Positions 526-62,517 of a stretch of 64,000 nucleotides of DNA are shown here, piece by piece; the first letter of the stretch is position 1, and each line of letters starts with the position of its first letter. Source of the DNA: Escherichia phage vB_EcoM-E33; sequence record OL780484.1, one strand, 5' to 3'. The notes beneath the pieces were generated by a model. It did not search any database. It was not told where the DNA came from and was given only the letters and a program-made list of their open reading frames with translations. The translations under genes and the position numbers were made by a program.

Positions 526-555
526 GTTTACATACACCAAGGATGGTGTTACTAT
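526..555 (+). promoter_or_regulatory. T4-type early promoter (GTTTACA -35, 17 nt spacer, TACTAT -10), spacer has inverted repeat acacca/tggtgt
   Basis: motif read directly from sequence. Confidence 0.5.
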
Positions 556-583
556 CTTCCTATCAACTTGAGAGGAAAACAAA

Positions 584-841
584 ATGAAATTCTATTACGC
601 CAAACATAAAATTACCCGTGAGTTTGTATCGTTTTCAACCTTTTCAGATGAAGAAGACTTTTGCATCACTGGTCTGGATTTATCTAAATATGAAACCGAC
701 CAGCCTTATTTGACCACTCATGACGAGATTCAACGTTTGGTGAACGGTGAGCTAAATAATTCTTACTGCACTCAAATTTACCCTGCTTTGAAAAAAGCTA
801 TCAATGCTAATCAGATTGAAATCATTGAGGTGGAATTGTGA
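584..841 (+). CDS. hypothetical small protein, 85 aa; paralog of the next ORF
   Basis: ORF track; shares YYAKHK-T N-terminus and IEI-EV C-terminus with ORF 838..1104. Confidence 0.55.
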   Translation: MKFYYAKHKITREFVSFSTFSDEEDFCITGLDLSKYETDQPYLTTHDEIQRLVNGELNNSYCTQIYPALKKAINANQIEIIEVEL

Positions 842-1194: not shown

Positions 1195-1223
1195 GTATAC
1201 ATCTCCATTAATCATGATATTAT
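1195..1223 (+). promoter_or_regulatory. T4-type early promoter (GTATACA -35, TATTAT -10) followed by conserved TATAGACCTATCAACTAATGGAG initial transcribed region
   Basis: motif read from sequence. Confidence 0.45.
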
Positions 1224-1249
1224 AGACCTATCAACTAATGGAGATGATT

Positions 1250-1360
1250 ATGAAAAACTTACTTAAAGCAATTTGGAACATGTTTGTGTTGTTAATGGTA
1301 TTGAGCATTTTCCCAATCGTTTTTATGATTGACCATGTACGTGTATTCTTTAACTTCTGA
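1250..1360 (+). CDS. hydrophobic micro-protein, 36 aa
   Basis: ATG 9 nt after GGAG; sequence MKNLLKAIWNMFVLLMVLSIFPIVFMIDHVRVFFNF; below the ORF-track size cutoff. Confidence 0.3.
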   Translation: MKNLLKAIWNMFVLLMVLSIFPIVFMIDHVRVFFNF

Positions 1361-1593: not shown

Positions 1594-1938
1594 ATGTCTA
1601 AATTATTTTTTGGTAATCGCAACATTATGTTCTTTGAGCAACTCAGTCTTAAAGAGGCATTGAAGGCCTTCAATCAAGAACTGGTTACTGGGCTAGATTC
1701 AAAAACTATGGCAAGTGCGGATTTCGTTTTCGTTCAAGACCCGGATACAGGTTTTTATCGATTCATCAAATTCCGTATGAGCATGGACCCTGACTATCGT
1801 AGTGCTTACTACGTGAGTTATGAAAACGTTATCAAAGAATTACGTGATACCTATGGACGCGCTTTGAACCCACTGAACAAGGTTTATAATGCTTCTTTTT
1901 ATACGAGCGGATTTATTTTAGAACAGCTACAAAAATAG
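1594..1938 (+). CDS. hypothetical protein, 114 aa
   Basis: ORF track, start moved to ATG preceded by AAGGAAAATATT RBS. Confidence 0.5.
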   Translation: MSKLFFGNRNIMFFEQLSLKEALKAFNQELVTGLDSKTMASADFVFVQDPDTGFYRFIKFRMSMDPDYRSAYYVSYENVIKELRDTYGRALNPLNKVYNASFYTSGFILEQLQK

Positions 1939-1966
1939 TTTACAACCTCGAGAATCATGTTATAAT
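1938..1966 (+). promoter_or_regulatory. T4-type early promoter upstream of ndd (GTTTACA, 16 nt spacer, TATAAT)
   Basis: motif read from sequence. Confidence 0.55.
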
Positions 1967-2015
1967 GGTTCTCGTTGACTGGATAACAAAACATTAATCT
2001 ACTGAGGAAATTGAT

Positions 2016-2465
2016 ATGAATACTTATATGACTCGCCGTAACGTTCTGTCTGCTGGTGCTACTACTGTTGCTTATGTTAAGAACGGTGAATACCAAAATG
2101 GCAAACCTTCTAAAGAAATCTCTGCTCAGCCAGGCTTCTACTTCTTTGTTAAAGGTGAAGCGGATTCTCGTGTCGTAGCTGCACGCTTTTATGTCGGTAA
2201 TCAACGTTCGGCTCAAGGTCTCGATGGTATCGTGGCTAACATTCGTAAGAAACGTTCTCAATCAGCCCGCACTATGGCAGTGAACGGTGTTGTGTATGAA
2301 GTTCTTTATGTACCAGCTTCTAAGATGAAACCTCTGACTACAGGTTTTGGTAAGGGTCAAATTGCAATGGCTTTCACTCGTAATCATAGTTCCGACCTCC
2401 AGACACTGGAAGAAATGAACCGTATGTTGGCTGATAACTTTAAATTCATCCTGCAGGCTTACTAA
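2016..2465 (+). CDS. ndd: Ndd nucleoid disruption protein
   Basis: 149 aa; strong remembered similarity to T4 Ndd, including the C-terminal [17 protein letters not shown] and [17 protein letters not shown]. Confidence 0.85.
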
Positions 2466-4231: not shown

Positions 4232-4332
4232 GCCTTGGAGTCGAGTTCTTGTTACTCTGTATCTTTGCTGTTATCCTAGGCCTGGCGACAGGCTTAGCTA
4301 TAGGTTTAATAGCAGCCCACTTTAAAAAGTAA
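4228..4332 (+). CDS. hydrophobic micro-protein, 34 aa, overlapping the gp52 stop (ATGA)
   Basis: translation MSLGVEFLLLCIFAVILGLATGLAIGLIAAHFKK; directly followed by a terminator. Confidence 0.3.
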   Translation: MSLGVEFLLLCIFAVILGLATGLAIGLIAAHFKK

Positions 4333-4356
4333 GGAACCTTCGGGTTCCTTTTTTGG
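4332..4356 (+). terminator. intrinsic terminator, stem aggaacc/ggttcct with UUCG loop and T-run
   Basis: hairpin plus TTTTTT read from sequence. Confidence 0.6.
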
Positions 4357-4373: not shown

Positions 4374-4403
4374 GTTTACATCTGCTTTAAACATGATACT
4401 ATA
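4374..4403 (+). promoter_or_regulatory. T4-type early promoter upstream of motA
   Basis: GTTTACA, spacer, GATACTATAG. Confidence 0.55.
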
Positions 4404-4440
4404 GACCTATCAAATAAATGAACTGAAACGGAGATACAAA

Positions 4441-5073
4441 ATGTCTAAAATTACTTATATCATCAAAGCTTCTGAAGACGTCCTGAATGAAAAAACTGCT
4501 TCGATCTTAGTACATATCATCAAGCATAACTTCATCACTTCAGGCGAAGTCCGTGAAGCCCTGAGTGAGCATTTTAGTGCTGCGGTAGTTAACTCTAACA
4601 TCGGTGTATTGATTAAGAAAGGATTCATCGAAAAATCTGGTGACGGTTTAGTGGCTACAGGTGAAGCAATGGACCTAGTTCAAAAAGCCGCCGACCTGTT
4701 CGCTTCTGAAAATGCTCCAGAGATGTTGGAAAAACGTAAAACACGTAGCTCACGTGGTGTTACTCCTGAAATGGTAACCATGGCCGATGAAGTTAAAGCT
4801 TTATTAGAAGATCGTATCGAGATTCGTGAAATTGCTGAAAACCGTAGCAACCTTGAAGTTCGATTCGCCAAACGTACCAATGGTATTCGTCAAATTGAAG
4901 TCCGTCGTGACGGAATGATGCGTATCTTCGGTTATAATATGACTGATAAAGAAAAACAAGTGTTTACTTCCTTGAATCTTGATGTTAAGATTAAGACTGG
5001 TGGTAAGAATACTTATATCGACTTCCAAAATGTATCATCTGAAGTTATCAAAACCGTAACCAACGCAATTTAA
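4441..5073 (+). CDS. motA: MotA middle-transcription activator
   Basis: 210 aa; N-terminus MSKITYIIKASEDVLNEKTASILVHI and NSNIGVLIKKGFIEKSGDGL match remembered T4 MotA. Confidence 0.9.
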   Translation: MSKITYIIKASEDVLNEKTASILVHIIKHNFITSGEVREALSEHFSAAVVNSNIGVLIKKGFIEKSGDGLVATGEAMDLVQKAADLFASENAPEMLEKRKTRSSRGVTPEMVTMADEVKALLEDRIEIREIAENRSNLEVRFAKRTNGIRQIEVRRDGMMRIFGYNMTDKEKQVFTSLNLDVKIKTGGKNTYIDFQNVSSEVIKTVTNAI

Positions 5074-5091
5074 CTGACTGAGGAAATTATT

Positions 5092-5421
5092 ATGAACAAG
5101 CTTAATATTGTTAATGAACTTCGTCGTTGTGCAGAACCTACTCAAGAAGGTTGGGACATTTGGTACCACGGTGCTTATCTCGGCACTATTGTTAAGATTA
5201 AAGCAGGTAAATACTTAATCATCCGTGGTGGTTCTGAAGCTTCTATGGGAATTCGCAAAAACTTTATGGCAGCAATCAGCACCTTTGTTCCGGCGGCCTA
5301 CGAAGTTTATAAAGCGGACTACAAAGAATACCAGGAATCACAGCCGGTTATTCGTTCAATTGGTGTTAATAAAGCTCAACAGAAAACTTTATGGCAACGT
5401 GTTAAAGGATGGTTCAAATGA
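5092..5421 (+). CDS. hypothetical protein, 109 aa
   Basis: ORF track; RBS GAGGAAATTATT. Confidence 0.5.
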   Translation: MNKLNIVNELRRCAEPTQEGWDIWYHGAYLGTIVKIKAGKYLIIRGGSEASMGIRKNFMAAISTFVPAAYEVYKADYKEYQESQPVIRSIGVNKAQQKTLWQRVKGWFK

Positions 5422-6611: not shown

Positions 6612-6770
6612 ATGAGTCATAACTTAGAGAATACCGTAACAGGCATGCGTACGCGTGAGCAGGAGTGCTTTGAGGAATTCCTGGGAGCTGATTTTAAGTT
6701 CCAGGAACCAATAGAAGAGATGTATCAGGAATATGTTAAAAAGAACGAAGAACATGTTTACAATCCCTAA
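6612..6770 (+). CDS. small acidic protein, 52 aa
   Basis: ATG after AAGGCT; below the ORF-track cutoff. Confidence 0.3.
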   Translation: MSHNLENTVTGMRTREQECFEEFLGADFKFQEPIEEMYQEYVKKNEEHVYNP

Positions 6771-6784
6771 GGATATGTTAGTAT
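6756..6784 (+). promoter_or_regulatory. T4-type early promoter upstream of asiA
   Basis: GTTTACA, 16 nt spacer, TAGTAT. Confidence 0.45.
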
Positions 6785-6825
6785 AGCCCTATCAGATAAT
6801 GACGTACTGAATTGAAGAGAATATT

Positions 6826-7101
6826 ATGACTAAAATTGAAATTGTTTCCGAAATTGCTACTATTGTTTCCATTTTGATTAAAACGGATTGTGAAGACATC
6901 ATGCAACGTCGTGATGAGTTTATTGCCTTTTTGAATGAGTTGGGTATTCGTAATGAACATGGAAAGGAACTTAATGGTTTGTCTTATAACAAATTATTTA
7001 AGTCATTAACTGAAGATGAACGTGACACTCTTATTGAGCAATTTAATGAAGGGTATGAAGATATACACCGTTACTTAATGATGTATACCTCCAATTTCTA
7101 A
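6826..7101 (+). CDS. asiA: AsiA anti-sigma70 factor
   Basis: 91 aa; similarity to remembered T4 AsiA (ASILIK, FIAFLNE-G, LI-EFNEG-E, YRYL-MYT). Confidence 0.85.
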   Translation: MTKIEIVSEIATIVSILIKTDCEDIMQRRDEFIAFLNELGIRNEHGKELNGLSYNKLFKSLTEDERDTLIEQFNEGYEDIHRYLMMYTSNF

Positions 7102-7788: not shown

Positions 7789-8583
7789 CTATAGCCAGGA
7801 ACCGTAGATAACACCTGTATTATGCCAAGTAGGAGAACTTCCAGCAACAGCAGCTCCTGCGCCGCCGCCAGCGCCGACTTTTAGAACTTTACCACCATCA
7901 TTCCATGCGTTCTGGCCTGCGGCGCCAGCATCACCGCCATGACCTGAGTGGGCGTTACCATAATTGTATCCACCGCCAGGGCTTTCATAAGAAGCACCAC
8001 CGCCAGAGTATCCACCGCCGCCACCAGGGCCAAATGGACGTCCACCACCACCACCGATATCTTGCCAGTTAGCACCTGAGTGAGGACGATACGCAATGCC
8101 GCCACCGCCGCCGCCACCGCCACAGATAACCCCACCATTATTAATTCTTAAACGACCACCAATATCATTTACAATACAAGTTCCACCCCATTGGCCGTTG
8201 CCATCGCCACCCGAGTGGGTCCAACCACCTTGACCACCTCGGCCCCATATATGAACCCCACCACCAATATTCAATTGAACATATTCGTTTGGAGTATCCC
8301 CATACATAAAGAACAATGGAACATCACGGGTATAAGATACTAATGTACCTGTAAGATTAAACACAATAGGCGCACTACCAGCTTCAAAGCAACGGTCGCG
8401 GAACCACTGCCCATTAAAGTTATGGTCCCCACCTAAAGTATGAATAACTTCAACAGACCGGCCGTTCATATTACTCATCCAAAATGGGACACCCATTCTT
8501 AATCTTACAGCGGCTCCTGCCATCCAAGGGTCTCCTGTCTGCGCCCTTGCAGAAGTTCCTATCCACGGTCCTGCTACTGCCAT
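7789..8583 (-). CDS. 38: gp38 receptor-binding adhesin, T2-type with glycine-rich motifs
   Basis: 264 aa from the internal ATG preceded by GGAGG; poly-Gly blocks ([22 protein letters not shown]) separated by variable segments. Confidence 0.8.
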
Positions 8584-17899: not shown

Positions 17900-17928
17900 G
17901 TTTACTTCTTCTAGGGTCGTGATATAAT
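17900..17928 (+). promoter_or_regulatory. T4-type early promoter upstream of rnh, divergent from the gene 34 late promoter
   Basis: GTTTACT, spacer, TATAAT; downstream hairpin gaacctct/agaggttc covers the rnh SD. Confidence 0.5.
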
Positions 17929-17959
17929 GAACCTCTACACTAATTGGACAGAGGTTCAT

Positions 17960-18907
17960 ATGAACGATTTAGATTTTTTACTTCCTGAAGAAGACCAACA
18001 AAAAGATGGATTTTTACTCCTAGATTTCAGCCAAATCATTATGGCTGCAGCTTTCCAAGAGTTTGGTGAGAATGCTGGATTTCCTAAAGTAACTACAGCA
18101 ATGCTTCGACACCTCGTGTTGAATTCAATTAAGAAAAATATTAAAGACTTTAAAAAACAGGGGTACAACCAACTGGTTATTTGTGTTGATAACTCTAAAT
18201 CAGGTTATTGGCGTCGTCGCTATTCACCTTATTATAAGAAAAACCGTGCTAAGGCACGTGACGAATCACCATTTGATTGGGAAGGTTTATTCACAGCAAT
18301 GCATATTATTGTTGATGAACTGGAACAAAACATGCCTTATATTGTTATGAATATCGATACAATCGAAGCTGATGACCATATTGCTGTTTTAACCCGAATC
18401 CTCACGGCTTTAGGCCATCCAGTTATGATTGGTTCTTCGGATGGCGACTTTACTCAACTCCATAAATTCCCTGGGGTAAAACAATGGTCTCCAATGCAGA
18501 AAAAATTCGTCAAAACAAAATCTGGCGATTCATTATTAGATTGTGTAACTAAGGTTGTTAAAGGCGACCGCAAGGATAACGTCGCGAGTATTAAAGTTCG
18601 TGGTGATTACTGGTTGACGATGGTTGAAGGCGAACGTACTCCTAGCACTCGTGCCAAGGAACTTGAAGCAATTGCTCTGAATTATTACGACCATGATATA
18701 ATTAAAACACTTCTTACTGAAGAACAATATGAACGTTTCTGTGAAAACCAAATCTTAATTGATATGGACTTTATTCCAGATGATATTGTTGCTTTAATTA
18801 CTGAAAGATATAATACGTATAACAAACCTTCGAAATCTAAAGTTTATCCTTATTTCGTTAAATCTGGTTTGTCTAAACTAACTGCTACAGTAGCTGATTT
18901 TTATTAA
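17960..18907 (+). CDS. rnh: RNase H (5-prime to 3-prime exonuclease, FEN family)
   Basis: 315 aa from the second ATG; similarity to remembered T4 RNase H (DFSQI, GYWRR, YKKNR-KAR-ES-DWEG, EADDHIAVL, SSDGDFTQLHK-P-VKQWSPM). Confidence 0.85.
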   Translation: MNDLDFLLPEEDQQKDGFLLLDFSQIIMAAAFQEFGENAGFPKVTTAMLRHLVLNSIKKNIKDFKKQGYNQLVICVDNSKSGYWRRRYSPYYKKNRAKARDESPFDWEGLFTAMHIIVDELEQNMPYIVMNIDTIEADDHIAVLTRILTALGHPVMIGSSDGDFTQLHKFPGVKQWSPMQKKFVKTKSGDSLLDCVTKVVKGDRKDNVASIKVRGDYWLTMVEGERTPSTRAKELEAIALNYYDHDIIKTLLTEEQYERFCENQILIDMDFIPDDIVALITERYNTYNKPSKSKVYPYFVKSGLSKLTATVADFY

Positions 18908-20209: not shown

Positions 20210-21115
20210 ATGTTTAAACGTAAAGACCCTTCCCAACTGGCTGCTCAACTGTCTGCAATGAAAGGTGGTTCTTCTTTCTCTTCCGATGATAAAGCTGAAT
20301 GGAAATTGAAAGATGACAATGGCGTTGGTACTGCGGTAATTCGTTTCCTACCTTCGAAAAACGAAGAAAATCCATCTCCATTCATTAAGCTCGTTAACCA
20401 CGGCTTTAAGAAAAATGGTCAATGGTACATTGAAAACTGTACGTCTACACACGGTGATTTCGATTCATGTCCTGTATGTAAATACATGAACCAGAATGAT
20501 ACCTTTAATACTAATAATGCCGAATACAAACTGATGAAACGTAAAACTTCCTTCTGGGCTAACATCCTTGTTATTAAGGATAGTGCAGTGCCTGCTAACG
20601 AAGGTAAAGTGTTTAAATTCCGTTTCGGTCAGAAAATTATGGATAAAATCAACCAGATGGTTGAAGTTGATACCGATATTGGTGAAGTGCCGGTTGACGT
20701 AACATGTCCGTTTGATGGTGCGAACTTCGTACTGAAATCTAAGAAAGTTGGCGACTTCAAGAACTATGACGATTCCAAATTCATGGGTCAGTCTGAAATT
20801 CCTAACATCAATGATGAAGCTTACCAAGCTAAATTGATGGAAGAAATGCACGACCTTTCTAAACTGCTCGATTTCAAATCATTCGAAACTAACGAAGCCA
20901 AGTTTAAGAAAGTTGTTGGTACAGCTGCTCTTGGTGGTGCTGCCGCTAAAGCTTCTGCAGCCGCTGATAAGATTGGTGATGACCTGGACGCATTCAGTGC
21001 AGACCTTGATGCATATGATTCTAAACCATCTACACCGACTCGTTCCACTACTCCTGAGCCGTCAGTAAGTCCTTCTGATGACGATGGTCTGGACGACCTG
21101 TTAGCTGGTCTATAA
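20210..21115 (+). CDS. 32: gp32 single-stranded DNA-binding protein
   Basis: 301 aa; strong similarity to remembered T4 gp32 ([51 protein letters not shown], acidic Ala/Asp-rich C-tail). Confidence 0.95.
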
Positions 21116-21131
21116 GTTATTGATTTATAAT

Positions 21132-21157
21132 GGGAAGACTTCGGTCTTCCCTTTTTG
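21132..21157 (+). terminator. intrinsic terminator after gene 32 (gggaagac-UUCG-gtcttccc plus T-run)
   Basis: hairpin plus TTTTT. Confidence 0.65.
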
Positions 21158-21167
21158 GCATTTAATG

Positions 21168-21196
21168 GTTTACAACGCCTTTAAACGTGATACTAT
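21168..21196 (+). promoter_or_regulatory. T4-type early promoter
   Basis: GTTTACA, spacer, GATACTATAG. Confidence 0.55.
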
Positions 21197-21224
21197 AGAC
21201 CTATCAACTACATGAGGAAATAAA

Positions 21225-21614
21225 ATGGAAATCGGTAAAACTTATGAACTTCGTCCTGAATGCATTAAAGACTTTATTGAAATGGACGAATATGAAAATA
21301 ATAAAAGCATGGTCGACCTTATCCAAGACAACGGAGGTTGGTTTGAAGTAAAGGATATGTTGACTATGGATGGCGACAAATTTGTGACTGAAATCGAATG
21401 TGCAAATGGCGAGATTTATAATGCATTTGGGTTGGTGCCAAATTATTTTGAGTTGCATGAAGATGAGTTCTATTGCTTCTGTGAATATGTTGTGGAAGAT
21501 AAAGAAATCGATGAGCCTATTGCTAAGGCCGGTGTGACTCAAATCCATTGCATTGTCACCGAACAGAACGTTGACCAAATCATTGAACTTTTGCAAAAAA
21601 CTTTTAAGGCCTAA
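21225..21614 (+). CDS. hypothetical protein, 129 aa (32-frd accessory cluster)
   Basis: ORF track; RBS GAGGAAATAAA. Confidence 0.55.
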   Translation: MEIGKTYELRPECIKDFIEMDEYENNKSMVDLIQDNGGWFEVKDMLTMDGDKFVTEIECANGEIYNAFGLVPNYFELHEDEFYCFCEYVVEDKEIDEPIAKAGVTQIHCIVTEQNVDQIIELLQKTFKA

Positions 21615-21615
21615 T

Positions 21616-21876
21616 ATGACTAAAGATGATTTCCTGGATGCAGTAGAAAAAGCCAGTGAGAAATTTGAAGTGATGGGTGTACGAGTTCATAAAGACCGAA
21701 ATTACGGGCTCGATATCCAAACTTATTCATTATGGCTTGTAGGTGAACATAGTCTTGTAACCACCTTAGTTATGGGTGTTGATGCCCAACCTTTACTGGT
21801 TAAATTTAGAAGTATGGAAAAAGCTACCAAAGAAATGATTAAGCTTGGTAAATGGCTTGATAAAATTCAAAAATAA
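21616..21876 (+). CDS. hypothetical protein, 86 aa
   Basis: internal ATG immediately after the upstream stop. Confidence 0.45.
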   Translation: MTKDDFLDAVEKASEKFEVMGVRVHKDRNYGLDIQTYSLWLVGEHSLVTTLVMGVDAQPLLVKFRSMEKATKEMIKLGKWLDKIQK

Positions 21877-21877
21877 G

Positions 21878-21907
21878 TGTTTACAATGCCTTTAAACATG
21901 ATACTAT
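21878..21907 (+). promoter_or_regulatory. T4-type early promoter
   Basis: GTTTACA, spacer, GATACTATAG. Confidence 0.55.
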
Positions 21908-21939
21908 AGACCTATCAACTAATGAGTGAGGAAAATAAA

Positions 21940-22167
21940 ATGGCTAAGGTTAATATTGATATCGTTGATTTTGAATACACTTACGAAGTTATCCGTAATC
22001 GTTATCCTTCTTTAGTTATGACCCATATTAAAGATACCCAATTCTGTAGTATGCAAATTGAAGTCCAAGGTCCTCTTGAAGACCTTACCCGCTTTATGGC
22101 TGACGAGTATTGTGACGGTATGCACCTGGAAGACGCTAAATTTTATATGGGCCTAATTCAAAAATAA
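21940..22167 (+). CDS. hypothetical protein, 75 aa
   Basis: ATG preceded by GAGTGAGGAAAATAAA. Confidence 0.5.
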
Positions 22168-22197
22168 GTTTACACCAGGCTATGGTAGTGATACTAT
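22168..22197 (+). promoter_or_regulatory. T4-type early promoter with spacer inverted repeat (ggctat/atagcc)
   Basis: GTTTACA, spacer, GATACTATAG. Confidence 0.5.
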
Positions 22198-22222
22198 AGC
22201 CTTATCAACTAAGGAGAATAAA

Positions 22223-23905
<1,683 letters not shown>

Positions 23906-28255: not shown

Positions 28256-29400
28256 TTGAATTATATGATAACTTGATGGCCCTGGTTAAAAACTCGACTA
28301 AATCTAAGTTCTTCTTTAAAGACTTTCAGAGTGCTCTAGGAGTCAACTATCGCATCTTTAGTTATAACTACGCATCATACAGTGATTGGTTGGAAGACGG
28401 CGCACTAGAGTGCCGAGGCATTATGTTTGAAATGGACGAGAAAGGTCCTGTACGTATTGCCGCTCGTCCTATGCAAAAGTTCTTTAACCTCGACGAAAAC
28501 CCTATGACTATCGGTCTGGATTTGTCGCCAGAAAATATCGACCTCGTAATGGCTAAGGAAGATGGTTCTCTGATTTCTACATTCATGGACCGACAGTATC
28601 TTTCTGTTAAATCTAAAGGCTCTATCCATTCATCAATGGTGCATGATTCTTTACGGTTCCTTCGTCTCCCTGAGAACGAGGCTTTTGCCGCACGTCTAGA
28701 AGAAATCACCAAAGCTGGGTATACCTGCAACCTTGAATATGTTGCACCTACCAACCGTATCGTGCTGGCTTACCAAGAAACAAATCTCATCCTGTTGAAC
28801 GTTCGTAATAATGAAACCGGTGAATATATTCCATATGCGGAATTGTTTAAGGACGGCGCACTGCGTAAGCATTTGGTTGAAAGCTATGAGCTCGCTGAGG
28901 GCGATTTCGTAGAAAACATCCGTAAGCAGGAAGGCATTGAAGGTTTCATCTTTGTACTGAAAGATGGTACGTTCTTTAAACTCAAAACCGCCTGGTACAG
29001 TGCACTGCATCATACCAAAGATTCCATTAACAACAACGAACGTTTGTTTGAAGTTGTAGTGGCTGGTGGAACTGATGACCTTCGTGGTCTGTTCAGTACA
29101 GATTCCTTTGCTATCGAGAAAATCGATGCCTTTGAACGCATCCATTTAGATTACCTAGAACAATCATTAGCCTTGTTAGAAGCAGCTTACTCTCAACTCA
29201 AAGGTCGCGACCGTAAAGACTATGCCGTTACTGGACAGCTAATCCTTAAGGACTTCCCAGGGTTGTTCTCTATTCTTATGCAGGCGTACGTAGGCGGTAT
29301 TAATTATGATACGGTCATGGACCAGATTAACTCTGTGTTCTTGAAAAATCATAAGGCCCAAATCCCTGAAAAATATTTGAAAGAAATTGTGGTAGAGTAG
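28252..29400 (+). CDS. rnlA: RNA ligase 1
   Basis: 382 aa; similarity to remembered T4 Rnl1 (YRIFSYNYASYSDW, ALECRGIMFEMD, APTNRIVLAYQE, LLNVR-NETGEYI). Confidence 0.85.
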   Translation: MIELYDNLMALVKNSTKSKFFFKDFQSALGVNYRIFSYNYASYSDWLEDGALECRGIMFEMDEKGPVRIAARPMQKFFNLDENPMTIGLDLSPENIDLVMAKEDGSLISTFMDRQYLSVKSKGSIHSSMVHDSLRFLRLPENEAFAARLEEITKAGYTCNLEYVAPTNRIVLAYQETNLILLNVRNNETGEYIPYAELFKDGALRKHLVESYELAEGDFVENIRKQEGIEGFIFVLKDGTFFKLKTAWYSALHHTKDSINNNERLFEVVVAGGTDDLRGLFSTDSFAIEKIDAFERIHLDYLEQSLALLEAAYSQLKGRDRKDYAVTGQLILKDFPGLFSILMQAYVGGINYDTVMDQINSVFLKNHKAQIPEKYLKEIVVE

Positions 29401-29429
29401 TTTACATCTCCTCATGACGTGTTAGTATA
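29400..29429 (+). promoter_or_regulatory. T4-type early promoter embedded in a stem-loop (tctcctcat ... atgaggaga) whose 3-prime arm is the SD of the alc-position gene
   Basis: GTTTACA, spacer, TAGTAT; inverted repeat read from sequence. Confidence 0.5.
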
Positions 29430-29458
29430 GACTTACCAACTAATGAGGAGAAAACAAA

Positions 29459-29959
29459 ATGAATATGCAAATGATTACTAACGAAATGGTTGTTAAGGCT
29501 TTTGGTGACTCTACTGACGGCATCCAAGTTTTTAAAGGTTCTCGTGCAGTAGGTTACCTGACCGATCTTCGTGTCACTTTAGCTAAAAATGCTAAAAAGA
29601 AAATCAAGCAAAAAGAATACTCTACCCGTTATGCAGAAGAAAAGCGTGAAGCAATGCCTCAAGCTGTTAACTCTATGGTCGAGTTTCTCCAAAACAACCT
29701 TTCCAAATACGATGCCGAGGTGTTTATTAATATTAGCCAACCTAATGTTAAAATCTCAGGCATCACGTTCTATTTGATTTGCGACCCATTAAGCGACAAG
29801 TTTAATCGCCTTGGCATTTCAAGTCCTTACCATACCGCTGAAGAATTGTGTTTTATGTTCGAAACGTACAAAATTCAGTGTGAAAATCCTAAAACAGTTC
29901 TTATTAATTCCCTGTCACGTGATGACATCATCGAGATTATTACCAAATGTCTAAATTAA
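29459..29959 (+). CDS. alc: Alc-like protein (inhibitor of host transcription), by position and size
   Basis: 166 aa; synteny rnlA-alc-pseT.x-pseT; sequence identity not verifiable from memory. Confidence 0.55.
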   Translation: MNMQMITNEMVVKAFGDSTDGIQVFKGSRAVGYLTDLRVTLAKNAKKKIKQKEYSTRYAEEKREAMPQAVNSMVEFLQNNLSKYDAEVFINISQPNVKISGITFYLICDPLSDKFNRLGISSPYHTAEELCFMFETYKIQCENPKTVLINSLSRDDIIEIITKCLN

Positions 29960-30690: not shown

Positions 30691-30720
30691 GTTTACAAAC
30701 TCTTGGGAGCAGAGTATAAT
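30691..30720 (+). promoter_or_regulatory. T4-type early promoter (GTTTACA, 17 nt spacer, TATAAT), spacer inverted repeat ggagca/tgctcc
   Basis: motif read from sequence. Confidence 0.55.
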
Positions 30721-30754
30721 GCTCCTACGGATTATAAAAATTGAGGAAATTATT

Positions 30755-31958
<1,204 letters not shown>

Positions 31959-32652: not shown

Positions 32653-32682
32653 GTTTACACTATGGTAGGACTGTGGTATAGT
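32653..32682 (+). promoter_or_regulatory. T4-type early promoter with a stem-loop in the spacer (ggtaggact/agtcctacc)
   Basis: GTTTACA, 17 nt, TATAGT; inverted repeat read from sequence. Confidence 0.5.
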
Positions 32683-32712
32683 AGTCCTACCGAAACAAAT
32701 GAGGAAATCGAA

Positions 32713-33267
32713 ATGAGCCAGTTCTTTGAAGAGCGTAAGTTTTATAAGTTCGTTGGTGAATACACTAAAAACAAATTCACTAATAACGGTGCTTATGGCC
32801 TCAATACAGCTTTTGCTAAGTATGTGGGTATGAATCCGTTTGAAGTTGAAATTGATTACCATAACGGGAAGCCACGTGTAAGCCGAATTCGTGTATATGA
32901 CGAGATGATGTTTGTCGACCCGAGCAAAATGACAGGTGATCCTAATGATGCAAATAGTGTTCTTTTTAATTCATCAGGCTTTTTTAGCCATGAATTCGAA
33001 TACTTTATCGAAGTGGTAGACCCTAAAGAACTGCAGTTAGTTTTCCAGAACCCTGAAATCAAACCTATTAAAACTCCGGCCGATTGGAAAGTGCTTATTG
33101 TTAAAAATGGTAAGATTGAAGTTCATTCTCGCCATAACACAAAGGAACAAGCCGATCGTCAGGCTGAAGAGCTTTTGACTAAGTCGTTCCAACAAGTGTG
33201 TTATATTGTTAAAGGCGACGTTACCCAAGCTACCACTACCAAACAACTTAAGTTGGAGACCATCTAA
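32713..33267 (+). CDS. hypothetical protein, 184 aa
   Basis: ATG after GAGGAAATCGAA. Confidence 0.5.
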   Translation: MSQFFEERKFYKFVGEYTKNKFTNNGAYGLNTAFAKYVGMNPFEVEIDYHNGKPRVSRIRVYDEMMFVDPSKMTGDPNDANSVLFNSSGFFSHEFEYFIEVVDPKELQLVFQNPEIKPIKTPADWKVLIVKNGKIEVHSRHNTKEQADRQAEELLTKSFQQVCYIVKGDVTQATTTKQLKLETI

Positions 33268-35778: not shown

Positions 35779-35783
35779 GTTAT

Positions 35784-35808
35784 GGGACTCTTCGGAGTCC
35801 CATTTTTG
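35784..35808 (+). terminator. intrinsic terminator (gggactc-UUCG-gagtccc plus T-run)
   Basis: hairpin plus TTTTT. Confidence 0.65.
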
Positions 35809-35830: not shown

Positions 35831-35860
35831 GTGTACATCTCCGGTAGGCATGATACTATA
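35831..35860 (+). promoter_or_regulatory. T4-type early promoter heading leader-repeat copy 1
   Basis: GTGTACA, spacer, GATACTATAG; ctccggt/accggag inverted repeat pairs the spacer with the downstream SD. Confidence 0.5.
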
Positions 35861-35900
35861 GACATGTACCAAATAATACTAAAACAAACCGGAGAATAAA

Positions 35901-36233
35901 ATGAAAACTGTAAATCTGAATGCATCTGTTAAAGCTAAATGTTTCAACGGTGAATATCAAGAAACCATGTGGGTCCTGACTGCAGTTGAAGGTGATATCA
36001 TCGAAGTTGAAACAACTGAAGGTATGGGTACTGATTTTACATTCACCATCGAGCTTCACAACTTCTTTACAGGTTGGATTTATGAACTGAAAACTGTAAT
36101 TACTGGTCGTATTGAAGAAAACAAAAATGGTGAATTCTATTATGTTAATGCCCGTACACGTGCTGAACGTCTGATTGCTCAGATGAAAAAAGTTGGTAAA
36201 CTTGATATGAAAAATTGGAATGTTGTGAAATAA
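35901..36233 (+). CDS. hypothetical protein, 110 aa
   Basis: ORF track; RBS GGAGAATAAA. Confidence 0.55.
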   Translation: MKTVNLNASVKAKCFNGEYQETMWVLTAVEGDIIEVETTEGMGTDFTFTIELHNFFTGWIYELKTVITGRIEENKNGEFYYVNARTRAERLIAQMKKVGKLDMKNWNVVK

Positions 36234-36235
36234 AT

Positions 36236-36265
36236 GTTTTACTTTGGTACAGGTTGTGTTATTAT
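36236..36265 (+). promoter_or_regulatory. T4-type early promoter heading leader-repeat copy 2
   Basis: GTTTTAC, spacer, TATTAT; ggtacagg/cctgtacc inverted repeat. Confidence 0.45.
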
Positions 36266-36306
36266 AGACCTGTACCAAATAATACGAAAACAAACTGGAG
36301 AATAAA

Positions 36307-36672
36307 ATGAACTACATCAACTTCGAACGTAAATATGTTTCTAACGGTATCGCTGGTTCTTCTGAAGTTATTTGCCTGTGGAAACACAACAACGGCGCGG
36401 TGTGCGAAATCGAACAGTGCATGACTCCTAACTACGTTTATATGCGCTTTGAAAATGGTATTACGGTTTCAATCACAATGGAAGGTTCTACTTTTAAAAT
36501 CGCTTTAGATGATGATTTCCGTCAACGTGATTTAGGTACCCATCCTTGCTGGAACGGTGTTAATCGTAAGCTTCTGGTTAAAACTTGGATTCGACACATC
36601 CTGAGCAACCGAGCTAAACCTGAACACCTGGAAGCAATCTTTGATGTAGTTCTGAACGAATTCGACATCTAA
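36307..36672 (+). CDS. hypothetical protein, 121 aa
   Basis: ORF track; RBS GGAGAATAAA. Confidence 0.55.
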   Translation: MNYINFERKYVSNGIAGSSEVICLWKHNNGAVCEIEQCMTPNYVYMRFENGITVSITMEGSTFKIALDDDFRQRDLGTHPCWNGVNRKLLVKTWIRHILSNRAKPEHLEAIFDVVLNEFDI

Positions 36673-38732: not shown

Positions 38733-38760
38733 CTTGCTTTTGGCTGATGTGGCTTATAAT
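38733..38760 (+). promoter_or_regulatory. middle/sigma70-type promoter upstream of DNA ligase (TTGCTTTT, 13 nt, TATAAT)
   Basis: motifs read from sequence. Confidence 0.45.
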
Positions 38761-38785
38761 AGAATCCATGACTAATGAGGTGATT

Positions 38786-40312
38786 ATGATTTTAGATATT
38801 TTAAACGAAATTGCTGCTATTGATTCTACTAAAGCTAAAGAAGCCATTATTGCTCGTGAAAAGGACAATGAGCTTCTGAAACGTGTTTATCGTATGGCTT
38901 ATACCCGTCGTCTGAACTACGGTATTAAAAAGTGGCCAGAACCTGGATTTACATCTCAATCCTTTGGTATGATTACTCTTGAAGACCTTCTTGATTTCGC
39001 TGAATTCACATTAGCCACACGTAAGATTACGGGTAATGCGGCTATTGAAGAACTGGCTCAAATCATTGCTGATGCCAAGGCCCCGGATGCCGAGGTATTA
39101 CGTCGTGTAATGATGCGCGACCTTGAATGTGGTGCATCGATTTCTATTGCTAACAAGGTTTGGAAAGGTTTAATCCCTGAACAACCGCAGATGTTGGCGA
39201 GTTCTTATGATGAAGCTTTGATTAAGAAAAATATTAAATGGCCAGCGTTTGCTCAATTAAAAGCTGATGGTGCTCGTTGTTTTGCCGAAGTTCGTAACGA
39301 TGGTGTGACATTCCTTACTCGTGGTGGTAACGAATATCAAGGGCTTAATCTTTTGGCGGCTGAATTAATGGCCATGACCGAAGAAGCTCGACAACGCCAT
39401 CCTAATGGCGTTATGATTGATGGCGAATTAGTTTACCATACTCCTAAGGTAGAACCTAAAGCATCTAATGATTTGTTTAGTATGTTTGACGAGGAACTTC
39501 CTGAATTAAGTAAGGCTAAGGAATTCCAAACTGCCGCCGATCGTTCTACGTCAAATGGATTGGCTAATAAGGCTCTTCAAGGAACTATTTCGGCTACTGA
39601 AGCCGCTGGTATGGTATTACAGGCATGGGATTATGTCCCACTGGATGTCGTGTATTCTGAAGGCAAAATTAAAGGCGATAAGTATGATGTACGCTTTACA
39701 GCCTTAGAACTTATGGTGGCTCATAATGTCGTATTGCATGGTACAACGCGGGTTGAAGCTATCGAAAACCAGTGGGTTAATAATCTTGAAGAAGCTAAAG
39801 TCGTTTATAAGAAATATGTCGACCAGGGCCTGGAAGGTATTATCCTTAAGAACATGGACTCCTACTGGGAAAACCGCCGTTCTAAGAATCTTATCAAGTT
39901 CAAAGAAGTAATCGATATTGCTTTAGAAGTGGTGGGTTATTATGAACACTCGAAGGACCCTAACAAGCTAGGTGGTGTCGAGTTGGTATCACGTTGTCGT
40001 CGAATTACAAGCGACTGTGGTTCAGGCTTTAAAGATACCACCCATAAGAAAGATAAATCAGGTAAAAAAGTATTGATTCCATTGGAAGACCGTCCTGATT
40101 TAGACCGTGAACTTCTTATGAAACAAGCTCGTGAAGGTAAATTGATTGGCCGTATTGCCGACTGTGAATGTAATGGTTGGGTTCATTCTAAAGGACGTAC
40201 CGATACTGTAGGTATTTTCCTTCCAATTATTAAAGGTTGGCGTTTCGATAAAACAGAAGCTGATACATTTGAAGATGTATTCGGGTCGTGGGACCAAACA
40301 GGACTTAATTAA
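38786..40312 (+). CDS. 30: ATP-dependent DNA ligase gp30
   Basis: 508 aa from MILDILNEIAAI; similarity to remembered T4 ligase (KDNELLKRVYR, FAQLKADGARCFAEVR, IDGELVYH). Confidence 0.9.
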   Translation: MILDILNEIAAIDSTKAKEAIIAREKDNELLKRVYRMAYTRRLNYGIKKWPEPGFTSQSFGMITLEDLLDFAEFTLATRKITGNAAIEELAQIIADAKAPDAEVLRRVMMRDLECGASISIANKVWKGLIPEQPQMLASSYDEALIKKNIKWPAFAQLKADGARCFAEVRNDGVTFLTRGGNEYQGLNLLAAELMAMTEEARQRHPNGVMIDGELVYHTPKVEPKASNDLFSMFDEELPELSKAKEFQTAADRSTSNGLANKALQGTISATEAAGMVLQAWDYVPLDVVYSEGKIKGDKYDVRFTALELMVAHNVVLHGTTRVEAIENQWVNNLEEAKVVYKKYVDQGLEGIILKNMDSYWENRRSKNLIKFKEVIDIALEVVGYYEHSKDPNKLGGVELVSRCRRITSDCGSGFKDTTHKKDKSGKKVLIPLEDRPDLDRELLMKQAREGKLIGRIADCECNGWVHSKGRTDTVGIFLPIIKGWRFDKTEADTFEDVFGSWDQTGLN

Positions 40313-40532: not shown

Positions 40533-42428
40533 ATGTCCGAACAATTGAATGAGGTATTTGATGGTGATATAAATTTATCTGCTGTCAATTTAAACCCTAA
40601 ACTTAAAGTCCCACAGATTTGGAATATAAAGGCTGAAGGTAACGAGAACCTTGTTGCCCGCATGGTTTCATATACTTCCGAAGGCGATGTAATTCGTCAG
40701 GTTAAGCCTGGTGACAAGTATGTTCATGTCGTTTTAATGAGCCTATCGGCTAAAGGTTCTCCTGCCGAACTCAAAGGTGGATTAGGTACCAATCCTATTT
40801 CCGCTATTCGTTCTATATTTGATATCGTCTATGAACAGGTCAAGGCCCTTCGTATGGACGCTGTTATGTTCCGTTTTCCTACCAAGAAAATGAAAGGGCA
40901 GGAAAAAGCTATACAGAGGGTATTGGCTAAATTAATAGCCTCTAGAGCAGGCGGACAGTTTAAAGTTCTTGATGCCTTGTATCAATTCACCGGTAAGCAT
41001 TCGTATGTTTTTATCTATCGTAAAAATAAAAATATAGAATCTATAAATGGTATTCCTAATATTAATTTAGAATTGTATACTAAAGTCGAATCTGAAGTCG
41101 GTGACGTGTATGTTTCAAAGAAAACAGGCGAAGATGTTACCAAACTAGAAGCTATAGCTAAGTCCATAGACGAAATAGAAAAATCACGTTCTGATAAAAC
41201 TGTTATAACCAAAACAAAGGTTTCTAAACGTGCTGCTATCAATGCTTTATATCCTACAGCAGAGCCTACAGGATTGAGTAAATTTTCGGCAGAGCACAAA
41301 AAAGCTTATGCAGATTATTCTGCTACTAGTTCCGTTCATTCTTCTGAAGATTCTAAAGAAAGCCAAATAGCTTTAGCCAGTAATAAAATATTAAAAGACA
41401 CCTCTAAAGAAATGGCAGAATATTTGGATTATATTTTTAACGGTGTTAATCCATCATTTGAAGTAGACGAGCGCAAACTTAAACTAATTGCTGATATAAA
41501 GTTTGCTTTAGAGGCATCAGATTCTTTAGATAAATCTAATAGTGTCATAGAGGCTTTAAAATCAGGTAAATCTCATGTAGACATTCTTAGACTAGTCGCT
41601 GCGGCCCTTTTAGATGATTCAGTTAAAGGTACTTGGGCTAGAGAATCTAAAATCAAGGAAGTAATAAAATCCTTAGTAGCAGTTTATACAAAATCTATCC
41701 AACCATTGTTTAAGATATCTGATAATCCTAATTTATCCAAACCTCAAGAAGAGGCAGTCAAAAAGTATACTCGTGGCGGCTACAACCATATAAACAACTT
41801 TTTGCTAGGTAAAACAGATACCACCGATGAAATGATAAAAATGATGGGTGAGTTGGATTCTACATTTGAAAATGGTACAAAACTTCCTAAAGGAACCATA
41901 GTGTATCGTTCTCAGATAATGCCTACCGAAATGGCTTTGAATTCTATAAAACATAAGGTGATGTATCTTCCTATTTTTGCATCAACTTCATTGGCTCCTA
42001 ATATTTTCGGTGAAATGGGTCATGCTCAATCCAACTTAGACCCTGAAGCTCTTTCTAGCGATATAGATAGTAATCTTGAAGACACCATTAAAAGTGCGAC
42101 CGGAAGTGCTAGAGATACCATTAAGCTAGGGTTAATTATTAAAGGTGCTGATAAAATTAAGGTTATTGTGCCCGGTGACTTGGCTAATTGGTCTACAGAA
42201 ACCGAAGTAATTCTTCCTCGTGGGGTTATGCTTAAGATTAATAAAGTATACGGTGCTTCCAAGGGACCTATGGGTTCAATTGGTAAATATGTTTTAGTGG
42301 AATGTGAAGTTGTAGCTACCGAGCAAATCACAGAGGAAAATTCATATAGCACCGGATTCTCGTTTGGAAATTATGATAGAATTATGTATGAAGATTCTAT
42401 GGAAAAATTAGCAAATTTATTTAAATAG
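40533..42428 (+). CDS. Alt-like ADP-ribosyltransferase paralog 1 (631 aa)
   Basis: about 230 aa N-terminus shared with the two downstream ORFs; C-terminal YRSQ ... ASTSL ... ETEVILPRG (R / S-x-S / E-x-E ART triad). Confidence 0.7.
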   Translation: MSEQLNEVFDGDINLSAVNLNPKLKVPQIWNIKAEGNENLVARMVSYTSEGDVIRQVKPGDKYVHVVLMSLSAKGSPAELKGGLGTNPISAIRSIFDIVYEQVKALRMDAVMFRFPTKKMKGQEKAIQRVLAKLIASRAGGQFKVLDALYQFTGKHSYVFIYRKNKNIESINGIPNINLELYTKVESEVGDVYVSKKTGEDVTKLEAIAKSIDEIEKSRSDKTVITKTKVSKRAAINALYPTAEPTGLSKFSAEHKKAYADYSATSSVHSSEDSKESQIALASNKILKDTSKEMAEYLDYIFNGVNPSFEVDERKLKLIADIKFALEASDSLDKSNSVIEALKSGKSHVDILRLVAAALLDDSVKGTWARESKIKEVIKSLVAVYTKSIQPLFKISDNPNLSKPQEEAVKKYTRGGYNHINNFLLGKTDTTDEMIKMMGELDSTFENGTKLPKGTIVYRSQIMPTEMALNSIKHKVMYLPIFASTSLAPNIFGEMGHAQSNLDPEALSSDIDSNLEDTIKSATGSARDTIKLGLIIKGADKIKVIVPGDLANWSTETEVILPRGVMLKINKVYGASKGPMGSIGKYVLVECEVVATEQITEENSYSTGFSFGNYDRIMYEDSMEKLANLFK

Positions 42429-42436
42429 GATAGATT

Positions 42437-44518: not shown

Positions 44519-44521
44519 ATA

Positions 44522-46645: not shown

Positions 46646-46674
46646 TTTACAACACCACAAGGATGTGGTACTAT
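46645..46674 (+). promoter_or_regulatory. T4-type early promoter (GTTTACA, 17 nt, TACTAT), spacer inverted repeat ccaca/tgtgg
   Basis: motif read from sequence. Confidence 0.5.
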
Positions 46675-46702
46675 TACCTTACACAAACATGAGGAGAACA
46701 TT

Positions 46703-46993
46703 ATGAAATCTGCATTCCGTTTTAATGGTCAAGAACTGGTAGTTGAAAACGTTATCCCTGCTTCTGAAGAGTTTGACAGTGCAGTGGGTAATGAATTACG
46801 TCGAGTTTTCGGTGAAGACAAACAGTTTGATATCCGACCTGTTGAGAATTTTTCTTATCCAGAACAAACCGAAAACATTTTTAACGGTGTAGTGACAGGA
46901 CAACTCGAATCCGAAGCTCCTATTTCGGTTACGGTGTTTGTTAAAAAGCAACCACTAATGACCACAGCAGGTTTCATTTCGTTCCGTAAATAA
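46703..46993 (+). CDS. hypothetical protein, 96 aa, in its own promoter-to-terminator unit
   Basis: ORF track; RBS GAGGAGAACATT. Confidence 0.55.
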   Translation: MKSAFRFNGQELVVENVIPASEEFDSAVGNELRRVFGEDKQFDIRPVENFSYPEQTENIFNGVVTGQLESEAPISVTVFVKKQPLMTTAGFISFRK

Positions 46994-58391: not shown

Positions 58392-58395
58392 TTAT

Positions 58396-58415
58396 GGGCC
58401 GCAAGGCCCATTTTG
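58396..58415 (+). terminator. intrinsic terminator after hoc (gggcc-GCAA-ggccc plus ATTTTG)
   Basis: hairpin plus short T-run. Confidence 0.5.
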
Positions 58416-58435: not shown

Positions 58436-58465
58436 GTTTACAAGTTAAAAATTCTATGTTAAGAT
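58436..58465 (+). promoter_or_regulatory. T4-type early promoter (GTTTACA, 17 nt, TAAGAT)
   Basis: motif read from sequence. Confidence 0.4.
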
Positions 58466-58494
58466 GGGTTTACCAACTCAACGAGAGAATTGAT

Positions 58495-58704: not shown

Positions 58705-58732
58705 TATGCTTTAAATTTAGGTGTGATATAAT
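58705..58732 (+). promoter_or_regulatory. MotA-type middle promoter upstream of rnlB (TGCTTTA, 13 nt, TATAAT)
   Basis: motifs read from sequence. Confidence 0.45.
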
Positions 58733-62488: not shown

Positions 62489-62517
62489 AGACATATCAAA
62501 ACATGAGGAGATTAAAA

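Follow-up and report, generated by a model that had tools for sequence, protein, structure and literature searches.

The 64,000-nucleotide (nt) stretch of Escherichia phage vB_EcoM-E33 analysed here (OL780484.1; hereafter the window) contains at 21132-22214 a part of the variable stretch between gene 32 and frd that, judged from translated open reading frames (ORFs), lies on the early-transcription strand, with gp32 at 20210-21115 followed by four small ORFs and then by frd and td. The surrounding region (20900-22500) shares 99.3% identity with Escherichia phage WG01 and 90-96% with JS98, JS10, and IME08 (Dhakavirus), and in WG01/JS98-type records the matching ORFs bear the names 32, frd.3, frd.2, frd.1, and frd; by sequence similarity the window belongs to a Dhakavirus, a JS98/WG01-like T4-type phage. 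A preliminary description of this DNA had proposed that early promoters in this span and elsewhere are embedded in stem-loops that sequester the Shine-Dalgarno (SD) sequence of the downstream gene in read-through transcripts, and that they resemble the promoter early stem-loop (PeSL) cassettes of T4-type phages. As a whole, this description was partly confirmed. The flagged span is an ordinary terminator plus three PeSL-type early promoter cassettes without SD masking. In a minority of cassettes elsewhere, SD masking is predicted from folding and is backed by enrichment over controls and by compensatory changes.

Early promoter cassettes in the window and in the gene 32-frd span

We curated 18 early promoter cassettes in the window, every one on the + strand and one of them weaker (4962); they are referred to by their first position (Table 1). 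The common layout consists of an A-tract, GTTTACA, a spacer of 16-17 nt, TGnTACTAT, a short leader (~20 nt in the three flagged cassettes, each ~60 nt long), an SD, and an ATG, and the 18-site consensus (AAAAAagtGTTTACAtC ... CgTGtTACTATaGaCCT) comprises a UP-like A-rich tract, a -35, a TGn, and a -10 element. The exact GTTTACA heptamer is found at 13 of the 18 sites, the others having GTTTACT, GTATACA, GTGTACA, or TTTTACT, and the SD and ATG of an ORF of 36-315 amino acids (aa) follow within 19-43 nt of each site, or 94 nt at the weak site 4962. Genes behind cassettes include motA, rnh, and alc (phrog_1253). The earlier count of at least 17 promoters of this type, mostly before small ORFs and three of them within the flagged 1 kb (heptamers at 21168, 21879, and 22168), thus stands. 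An untrained pattern (GT[TG]TAC, 17-19 nt, TANNNT) has 18 matches on the + strand and one on the - strand, compared to 4.3 on both strands of dinucleotide shuffles. A matrix derived from the sites found 18 + strand sites above 22 bits and a top - strand site of 12, a test that is circular for the + strand and for which the - strand serves as control. Only the phage-specific pattern is enriched, as a generic sigma-70 scan of the window gave 41 promoters vs. 46.8 in shuffles. The consensus fits the UP/-35/TGn/-10 layout of T4 early promoters (PMC2988021), and the sites fit the T4/PST PeSL consensus TTTACW-N17-TAYWAT (PMC4122927); on this sequence evidence, the 18 sites are T4-type early (sigma-70) promoters. 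The RefSeq T4 annotation is without promoter features, and scans of the window with Rfam (gathering thresholds) and for tRNAs gave no matches.

Within the flagged span, cassette 21168 follows the gene 32 terminator and has its SD (GAGGAAA) at 21214-21220 and its ATG at 21225, the start of a 129-aa ORF (phrog_622). A single base separates the stop of this ORF from the start of an 86-aa ORF (TAATATG, 21612-21618), and the two ORFs probably share the 21168 promoter and are translationally coupled. Cassette 21879, which precedes a 75-aa ORF (ATG 21940), is ~88% identical to cassette 21168 over ~60 nt, the two forming a direct repeat 711 bp apart, and cassette 22168 precedes a 79-aa frd.1-like ORF (ATG 22223). 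Neither 21168 nor 21879 contains a stem (folding z-scores of +0.5 and +1.4, or +0.6 and +1.1 with longer flanks), and the SD of 21168 is open in read-through RNA. Cassette 22168 has a stem of 11 bp, including one G·U pair, around its -10, and its SD is free (whole-cassette z -3.0, or -1.7 with longer flanks). Besides the gene 32 terminator, this is the only strong stem of the span. At all three cassettes the energy needed to open the SD in read-through RNA is under the shuffle mean, and between 106 and 144 of 150 shuffles occlude the SD at least as much (Table 1). By folding, pairing of the SD with the promoter is absent in all three cassettes of 21132-22214, which speaks against SD masking there. 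Compared with the PeSL composite, one of the three has an internal stem (22168), one stands behind the gene 32 terminator (21168), and one has neither (21879).

The asserted resemblance to PeSLs is supported, both in composition (A-rich tract, -35, TGn -10, and SD plus ATG at the 3' end) and in the way in which ORF changes are bounded by cassettes. When cassette boundaries were compared across relatives, the indels and gene-order changes between gene 32 and frd were found to break at cassette edges in four of them (our handles L022, L024, L026, and L030): the JS98-type L024 has a 358-bp insertion at window position 21222-21239, L022 has ~510 bp in place of 22160-22212, the ORF at 21245-21611 is replaced in L026, and the order of two ORFs is swapped at 21880-21898 in L030. 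Cassettes also occur before unrelated genes, and the Karamvirus alc cassette has almost the same arms as the cassette before a 59-aa membrane peptide in L055. Edge-bound indels and the presence of cassettes before unrelated genes fit the PeSL model (PMC2839356, PMC4122927). The flagged cassettes may thus supply each ORF with its own immediate-early promoter, and their mutual similarity may offer recombination points for ORF gain, loss, and reordering.

Predicted pairing of the promoter spacer with the SD

SD accessibility was expressed as opening energy, the predicted cost of unpairing ATG-13 to ATG-5, in read-through RNA beginning 30 nt before the -35 and in RNA beginning at the predicted +1, with 150 shuffles per site as controls (Table 1). 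A paired SD in read-through RNA is predicted for 1195, 29400, 17900, and 62459 (7-14 kcal/mol) and weakly for 35831, and at the remaining 13 sites the value does not exceed the shuffle mean. At four sites no more than one of the 150 shuffles reaches the observed value, compared to ~0.1 such sites expected among 18, and the values are unchanged with 100 or 200 nt of upstream context. In 30 crudely called control genes, the median opening energy of the SD was 3.3 and the 90th percentile 5.3. Folding with fold_strand produced the same hairpins at 29400 and 1195, with the own-promoter RNAs at 0 to -0.9 kcal/mol, and the cassettes exceed random windows in predicted structure (mean z -1.26 vs. -0.24, Mann-Whitney p = 0.006). 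Mean SD pairing probability with the pre-start segment was uninformative because shuffled controls also pair the purine-rich SD in short isolated RNAs, and opening energy was used in its place. The inverted repeats previously listed at 1203-1243, 29407-29451, and 35839-35897 are present, with 11, 9, and 8 bp, respectively, and only the 3' end of the third differs (35895). The accompanying claim, that the SD is occluded in read-through RNA but not in RNA from the cassette's own promoter, holds in these models for 1195, 29400, and, weakly, 35831, but not for the three cassettes of the flagged span. In the folding models, SD occlusion is a property of a cassette subset, not of the whole class.

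A wider sample consisted of 117 unique cassettes from related phages (119 with two window sites added). In 17 of the 117, the spacer forms a perfect helix of 8 bp or more with the 20 nt that precede the ATG, compared to 0.18 with shuffled spacers and 1.35 with cross-paired SDs; for 9 bp or more, the count is 13 (0.03 and 0.63, respectively). Pairing spacers with the SDs of other cassettes removes the effect of the shared TCTCC/GGAGA motifs, and beyond this core the arms diverge (TCTCCATTTGG/CCAAATGGAGA, TCTCCGGTGGT/ACCACTGGAGA, and TCCTCATTTCGTT/AACGAAATGAGGA; further divergent pairs are TCCTCATCAG/CTGATGAGGA, ATCTCCTTT/AAAGGAGAT, and TCCTTTGT/ACAAAGGA). Comparisons of orthologous cassettes gave a mixed picture. 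Among relatives of 35831, close ones have a G·U at one pair, and those at 78% protein identity have wholly different arms that are still paired with the SD. Where the helices contain mismatches, a search blind to mismatch type found 17 G·T and 8 A·C (~11 vs. 2 by hand, with at least 9 Watson-Crick pairs), an excess that favours pairing in the sense RNA.

The spacer provides a common 5' arm for two classes of stems, pairing with the -10 flank in class I and with the SD in class III. Helices of at least 7 bp in the 119 cassettes comprise 30 of class I and 20 of class III, with 1.0 expected for each from shuffled spacers, and no cassette has both. In the window, class I is represented by 1938, 22168, 30691, 32653, and 36237, and class III by 1195, 29400, 35831, and a 6-bp match at 58436; at 17900, the bases right after the -10 pair with the SD. 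A significant stem is found in ~10 of the 18 window cassettes and in 50 of 119 in the wider sample, and promoter, SD, and ATG are present in all 18. With loops of 27-47 nt and an A-rich 3' flank lacking a T run, the class III hairpins are neither intrinsic terminators nor good cruciforms. In 28 of 29 class I cassettes, no more than 5 nt separate the -35 from the stop of a co-directional ORF, and a single one stands behind a separate terminator (association with stop abutment: Fisher p = 5e-11, uncorrected for relatedness). All five class I cassettes of the window abut a stop; the terminator-preceded cassettes 4374, 21168, and 58436 are stemless, and 35831 has only a weak helix. G+C-rich short-loop hairpins with a T run are found at 21132-21156, 4331-4354, 35782-35807, and 58394-58413, but not among the cassette-internal stems. 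The class I stem, which does not involve the SD, is likely a hairpin of the read-through RNA that replaces a separate terminator or 3' stabiliser. RNAalifold found no coherent consensus for 21 cassettes with class I stems because the helix register slides between cassettes; class I is thus a hairpin of variable placement between spacer and -10 flank and has no single fixed structure. For class III, 8 cassettes abut a stop, 6 stand behind a terminator, and 6 have a gap, and no link between SD masking and stop-codon distance was found among the cassettes sampled.

The best evidence for a putative SD-masking hairpin is provided by alc. Every sampled genus has rnlA, an intergenic cassette of ~60 nt, and alc in this order, and the rnlA stop lies 0-5 nt before the -35; in the window, the stop codon TAG ends at 29400 and overlaps the -35, the predicted +1 is at ~29435, and Alc (phrog_1253) starts at 29459. 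Opening energies of at least 10 kcal/mol in read-through RNA are predicted in 6 of 13 lineages, each with its own arm sequence: Dhakavirus (10.5), Kanagawavirus (14.3), Winklervirus (13.5), T4 (12.4), Karamvirus (14.3; the related SonariX, 16.4), and a Klebsiella phage (10.5). In the other 7 lineages the values are 2.7-6.9 kcal/mol, and one of these has a class I stem. Close relatives and a chimeric cassette (L006) retain the hairpin of 29400, and more distant phages have other stem types. Three genera have the compensated arms ATTT[T/C/G]GTT / AAC[A/G/C]AAAT (T-A, C-G, or G-C at the variable position), and alc arms with TCTCC, TCCTC, and TCCC pair with GGAGA, GAGGA, and GGGGA, respectively. 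A MAFFT alignment of all alc leaders placed the arms out of register, and four in-register leaders and a covariance model were used instead. In these four leaders 98% of the cells are paired, compared to 33%-56% with slid partners, and three pairs are changed on both sides. Searched against 597 kb, the covariance model built from them matched 31 sites, among them window 29400, T4 alc, and T4 motB.2. The resulting alignment (26 distinct rows), which is fitted to the structure and includes three minus-strand mirror matches, a point that weighs against its use as support, has 92% of cells paired vs. 38%-49% when slid, 10 of 13 pairs compensatory, and 53 cells changed on both sides vs. 3-12 when slid, and none of 500 shuffles reached this level. 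A scan of T4 1-50 kb predicts SD occlusion also ahead of modB and motB.2 (0 of 60 shuffles); the arm at modB lies just after the -10, as at rnh (17900), and the arms at T4 alc and motB.2 lie in the spacer.

Two other types of structure were observed in alc leaders. The T4 leader (L064, 100-163) forms a near-continuous hairpin of ~23 bp across spacer, -10, and SD, a length that may be enough to ask about a double-strand RNase substrate. In VR25/VR20-type phages (L008, L010, and L012), an AAGGGG...CCCCTT hairpin located 60 nt upstream of alc holds the -35 (GTGTACA) in its loop and has a T-rich run behind it. It corresponds to the GGGG/CCCC stem type described for the PeSLs of RB49/phi1 and occupies the position of the spacer:SD hairpin of the window.

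Table 1. Promoter cassettes and associated hairpins of the window, with predicted SD opening energies (kcal/mol) and the number of 150 shuffles that reach the read-through value.
Feature	Position	Strand	Elements or paired arms	Read-through	Own promoter	Shuffles	Remarks
Cassette with small intra-spacer hairpin	526-586	+	ACACCA/TGGTGT				SD occlusion at chance level
SD-occluding cassette (predicted)	1195-1252	+	spacer arm CATCTCCATTA 1200-1210 / TAATGGAGATG 1236-1246, 11 bp	12.6	1.6	0	
Class I cassette	1938-2018	+	CGAGAA 1949-1954 / TTCTCG 1969-1974, 6 bp				
motA cassette	4374-4443	+					Stemless; terminator upstream at 4331-4354
Weaker promoter-like site	4962-5094	+					Stemless; within motA 3' end; 94 nt to next ATG
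Cassette without significant stem	6756-6828	+					
rnh cassette	17900-17962	+	post--10 arm ATGAACCTCT 17927-17936, straddling predicted +1, / AGAGGTTCAT 17950-17959	13.8	2.7	0	
Gene 32 intrinsic terminator	21132-21156	+	GGGAAGAC-TTCG-GTCTTCCC, then TTTTT				Hairpin 21132-21151 plus T run
Flagged cassette 1	21168-21227	+	-35 21168-21174; -10 TACTAT 21191-21196	1.5		144	Predicted +1 ~21203
Flagged cassette 2	21879-21942	+	-35 21879-21885; -10 21902-21907	1.3		142	-35 2 nt past upstream stop; predicted +1 ~21914
Flagged cassette 3, class I	22168-22225	+	-35 22168-22174; -10 22192-22197; AGGCTATGGTA 22177-22187 / TACTATAGCCT 22192-22202	0.9		106	-35 abuts upstream TAA; predicted +1 ~22204
SD-occluding alc cassette (predicted)	29400-29461	+	arm TCTCCTCAT 29407-29415 / ATGAGGAGA 29443-29451, 9 bp	10.5	0.4	0	
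Class I cassette	30691-30757	+	GGGAGC 30705-30710 / GCTCCT 30721-30726, 6 bp				One G·U
Class I cassette	32653-32715	+	GGTAGGACT 32664-32672 / AGTCCTACC 32683-32691, 9 bp				Encloses -10; -35 2 nt past stop
Weak SD-occluding cassette (predicted)	35831-35903	+	TCTCCGGT 35838-35845 / ACCGGAGA 35888-35895, 8 bp	4.3	0.8	20	42-nt loop; terminator upstream at 35782-35807
Class I cassette	36237-36309	+	TTGGTACAGG 36244-36253 / CCTGTACCAA 36269-36278, 10 bp				
Cassette with small intra-spacer hairpin	46645-46705	+	CCACA/TGTGG				Directly past third Alt-like gene
Cassette with 6-bp spacer:SD match only	58436-58497	+					Terminator-like hairpin upstream at 58394-58413
Interrupted spacer:SD helix cassette	62459-62520	+	TCTCACATGT 62473-62482 / ACATGAGGAGA 62501-62511	7.4	0.6	1	

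Proposed mechanism and alternative explanations

In a minority of cassettes (~15% in the wider sample), the spacer begins with 8-13 nt that form the reverse complement of the SD region, and only RNA started upstream holds both arms because the 5' arm lies upstream of the transcription start. In read-through RNA the SD would be locked in a helix of 9-13 bp with a predicted opening energy of 10-16 kcal/mol, and in own-promoter RNA it would be free (predicted 0.4-3 kcal/mol). The masked genes would then be translated mainly from their own early promoter, which would make their expression independent of the upstream context and let it stop at early-promoter shut-off. The analysis shows the sequence features with their predicted folding energies, enrichment over controls, compensatory changes, and indel positions, and the transcription starts, the translational effect, and the purpose of the arrangement are inferred. 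We put a probability of about two in three on the reading that the flagged span holds three plain PeSL-type cassettes and that elsewhere a minority of cassettes place a spacer arm over the SD, so that the gene is translated mainly from own-promoter RNA.

SD-masking hairpins combined with an internal late promoter are found in T4 at e, soc, 49, and I-TevI (reviewed in PMC3014915). The putative SD-masking cassettes resemble this family in that RNA from an upstream promoter is predicted to fold the SD and/or AUG into a helix, and in that the predicted start between the arms would yield an RNA without the 5' arm, opening at a predicted 0.4-2.7 kcal/mol. In T4 e, soc, 49, and I-TevI, however, the promoter is late (TATAAATA) and expression is delayed, whereas the promoter here is an early sigma-70 promoter whose spacer is itself the 5' arm, and an immediate-early burst is predicted. 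As the promoters are early instead of late, the element would work like this family without being a member of the described set. The 2010 T4 review (PMC3014915) describes SD-masking hairpins, including those of homing-endonuclease genes, none of them with early promoters. Our literature searches found no early-promoter spacer described as an anti-SD arm, although the older T4 literature lay outside their coverage and a prior mention is possible.

In common with the PeSLs of Arbiol et al. (2010, PMC2839356) and Comeau et al. (2014, PMC4122927), the cassettes are repeated intergenic modules of an AT-rich tract, a sigma-70 promoter, an SD, and an ATG, with stems that cover the -10 or lie between it and the -35. 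Also shared is the location in hyperplastic regions with small accessory ORFs and cassette-bounded indels and swaps. Unlike the published PeSLs, about half of the cassettes here are stemless, including two of the three flagged ones, the existing stems lack a T run, and a spacer:SD class with a translational reading is found. The PeSL papers assign the stems a role in termination or attenuation and in recombination, terminator activity having been shown for one RB49/phi1 stem (PMC2839356, PMC4122927), and the 2010 paper does not mention translation (PMC2839356). That our cassettes are simply PeSLs in this published sense, with incidental complementarity to the SD, would agree with the indels breaking at cassette edges, with class I stems tracking the absence of a separate terminator, and with alc stem types that differ by lineage and include GGGG/CCCC plus a T run around the -35. 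We consider it unlikely, since spacer:SD helices of at least 8 bp are ~90 times as frequent as with shuffled spacers and ~12 times as frequent as with cross-paired SDs, change in a compensatory way, and have loops and 3' flanks that are not those of intrinsic terminators.

Translational coupling by hairpin unmasking is established in bacterial operons, such as those of ribosomal proteins, and in RNA coliphages. As in coupling hairpins, a downstream SD would be masked here by upstream sequence near the preceding stop; unlike in coupling hairpins, the stop is 45-90 nt away in half of the cassettes and an own promoter is present. A ribosome at the upstream stop could melt the anti-SD arm, so that the downstream gene is translated in step and not silenced. 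The position of the rnlA stop in the sampled genera, the pairing of the SD core with the 5'-most bases of the spacer arm, nearest the stop, and the stop abutment of about half of the spacer:SD cassettes can all be read in this way. The gaps or intervening terminators of the other half mean that coupling is not general, stop abutment is no commoner among spacer:SD cassettes than among the rest, and by our own estimate a terminating ribosome would open only the outer ~3 bp of the 9-13 bp helix at 29400, making coupling a rather improbable explanation. It is highly improbable that the inverted repeats act in DNA, as cruciforms, fork hairpins, or nuclease targets, or arise by unselected templated quasi-palindrome mutation. 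Templated correction of quasi-palindromes is known in T4, the cassettes clearly recombine, and the PeSL authors speculated on a DNA-binding recombination factor. Nevertheless, the excess of G·T over A·C mismatches fits sense RNA and not DNA, cruciform extrusion is disfavoured by loops of 27-47 nt, and a DNA-level role leaves unexplained why one arm is always the SD.

Several observations weigh against SD masking by the spacer arm. A ribosome terminating at a stop that abuts the -35 may partly open the helix, giving coupling instead of silencing, and the transcription starts were set by rule at 7 nt after the -10. Class-wide SD occlusion in the window is not significant (Wilcoxon test against shuffle means, p = 0.34). 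Among the individual sites, 35831 is weak in the shuffle comparison (Table 1) and its helix competes with another fold. Cassette 1195 is found with its ORF only in three near-identical relatives and is missing at that position in more distant ones, and is therefore without comparative information. At 17900, the 5' arm varies among near-identical phages and is missing in other genera, and the 3' arm, which consists of the SD plus the bases preceding the ATG, is fixed. In 3 of 7 relatives the 5' arm of 62459 is broken, with no compensating change. Upstream of 62459 is a divergently oriented gene, and the nearest + strand ORF is 143 nt away from 17900, which probably adjoins an opposite-strand late region; as both cassettes face opposite-strand genes, read-through may be rare there. 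These two are thus both the non-conserved cases and the sites where read-through matters least. At alc, 7 of 13 lineages have no hairpin or another stem type, which indicates that the hairpin is dispensable. Finally, cassettes from related phages are not independent samples. Clustering into independent units failed, as whole-cassette identity merges almost all cassettes and single-linkage on spacers chains; in 27 over-merged clusters, class I stems are found in 5 and spacer:SD helices in 3, with 0.23 expected for each.

Taken alone, the flagged span is an ordinary result, with known promoter cassettes and a known terminator. More tentatively, and with somewhat less than even odds, ~15% of the early cassettes of Straboviridae, T4 included, may use the spacer as an anti-SD arm for promoter-dependent translation, forming a self-insulating module, with class I stems as terminator surrogates at cassettes that adjoin the preceding gene. 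If so, some T4-type early genes, among them alc, small membrane peptides, and T4 motB.2, would be controlled by transcript isoform, the same coding sequence being silent on read-through RNA. The output of a 60-nt module would be independent of where recombination places it, potentially harmful products would be limited to an immediate-early pulse, and the defined expression of densely packed and often shuffled accessory genes would be explained. Such a mechanism would parallel, in the early phase, the late-gene hairpins of e, soc, and 49, would give part of the PeSL stems a testable function, and would provide a compact natural design for context-independent expression cassettes. As T4 carries the compensated rnlA-alc hairpin, the mechanism is directly testable in the best-studied phage.

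Further cassettes and neighbouring features

The ORF behind cassette 1195 (ATG 1250) encodes a hydrophobic protein of 36 aa (phrog_3098). Orthologous membrane peptides of 59 aa in related phages (L055:176, L057:945, and L058:458) likewise stand behind spacer:SD hairpins. The adjacent cassettes 35831 and 36237 have leaders (35851-35905 and 36257-36311) that share 91% identity over 55 nt at a distance of 406 bp, and in close relatives the first of them carries the ACTGGAGA SD of the second. This points to gene conversion or to a substrate for mini-circles. The class I stem of 36237 is kept in relatives at 78% protein identity, with one G·U change. At the start of rnh, a local hairpin (17943-17959) of the form TGAAC-AGAG-GTTCA, with TGGAC in the window, has the SD partly in its loop and 3' arm, and ACAGAGGTTCATATG upstream of rnh is kept across genera with 57%-80% RNase H identity (L027-L035).

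The stop of the 69-aa ORF behind cassette 58436 is immediately followed by a MotA-box-like middle promoter (ATATGCTT) on the + strand (58704-58740), with TGn and TATAAT at the correct distance behind the box. Three tandem paralogues of 631, 693, and 707 aa occupy 40533-46645, each with an ADP-ribosyltransferase exoenzyme domain (Alt-like), and explain the 266-nt and 211-nt repeat families spaced ~1.9-2.1 kb; gene 30, for DNA ligase, immediately precedes them at 38747-40312. A degenerate CCACCGCCGCCACC-type repeat recurs every ~90-120 nt at 8012-8260 and probably represents the Gly-rich repeats of an opposite-strand late gene of the tail fibre region.

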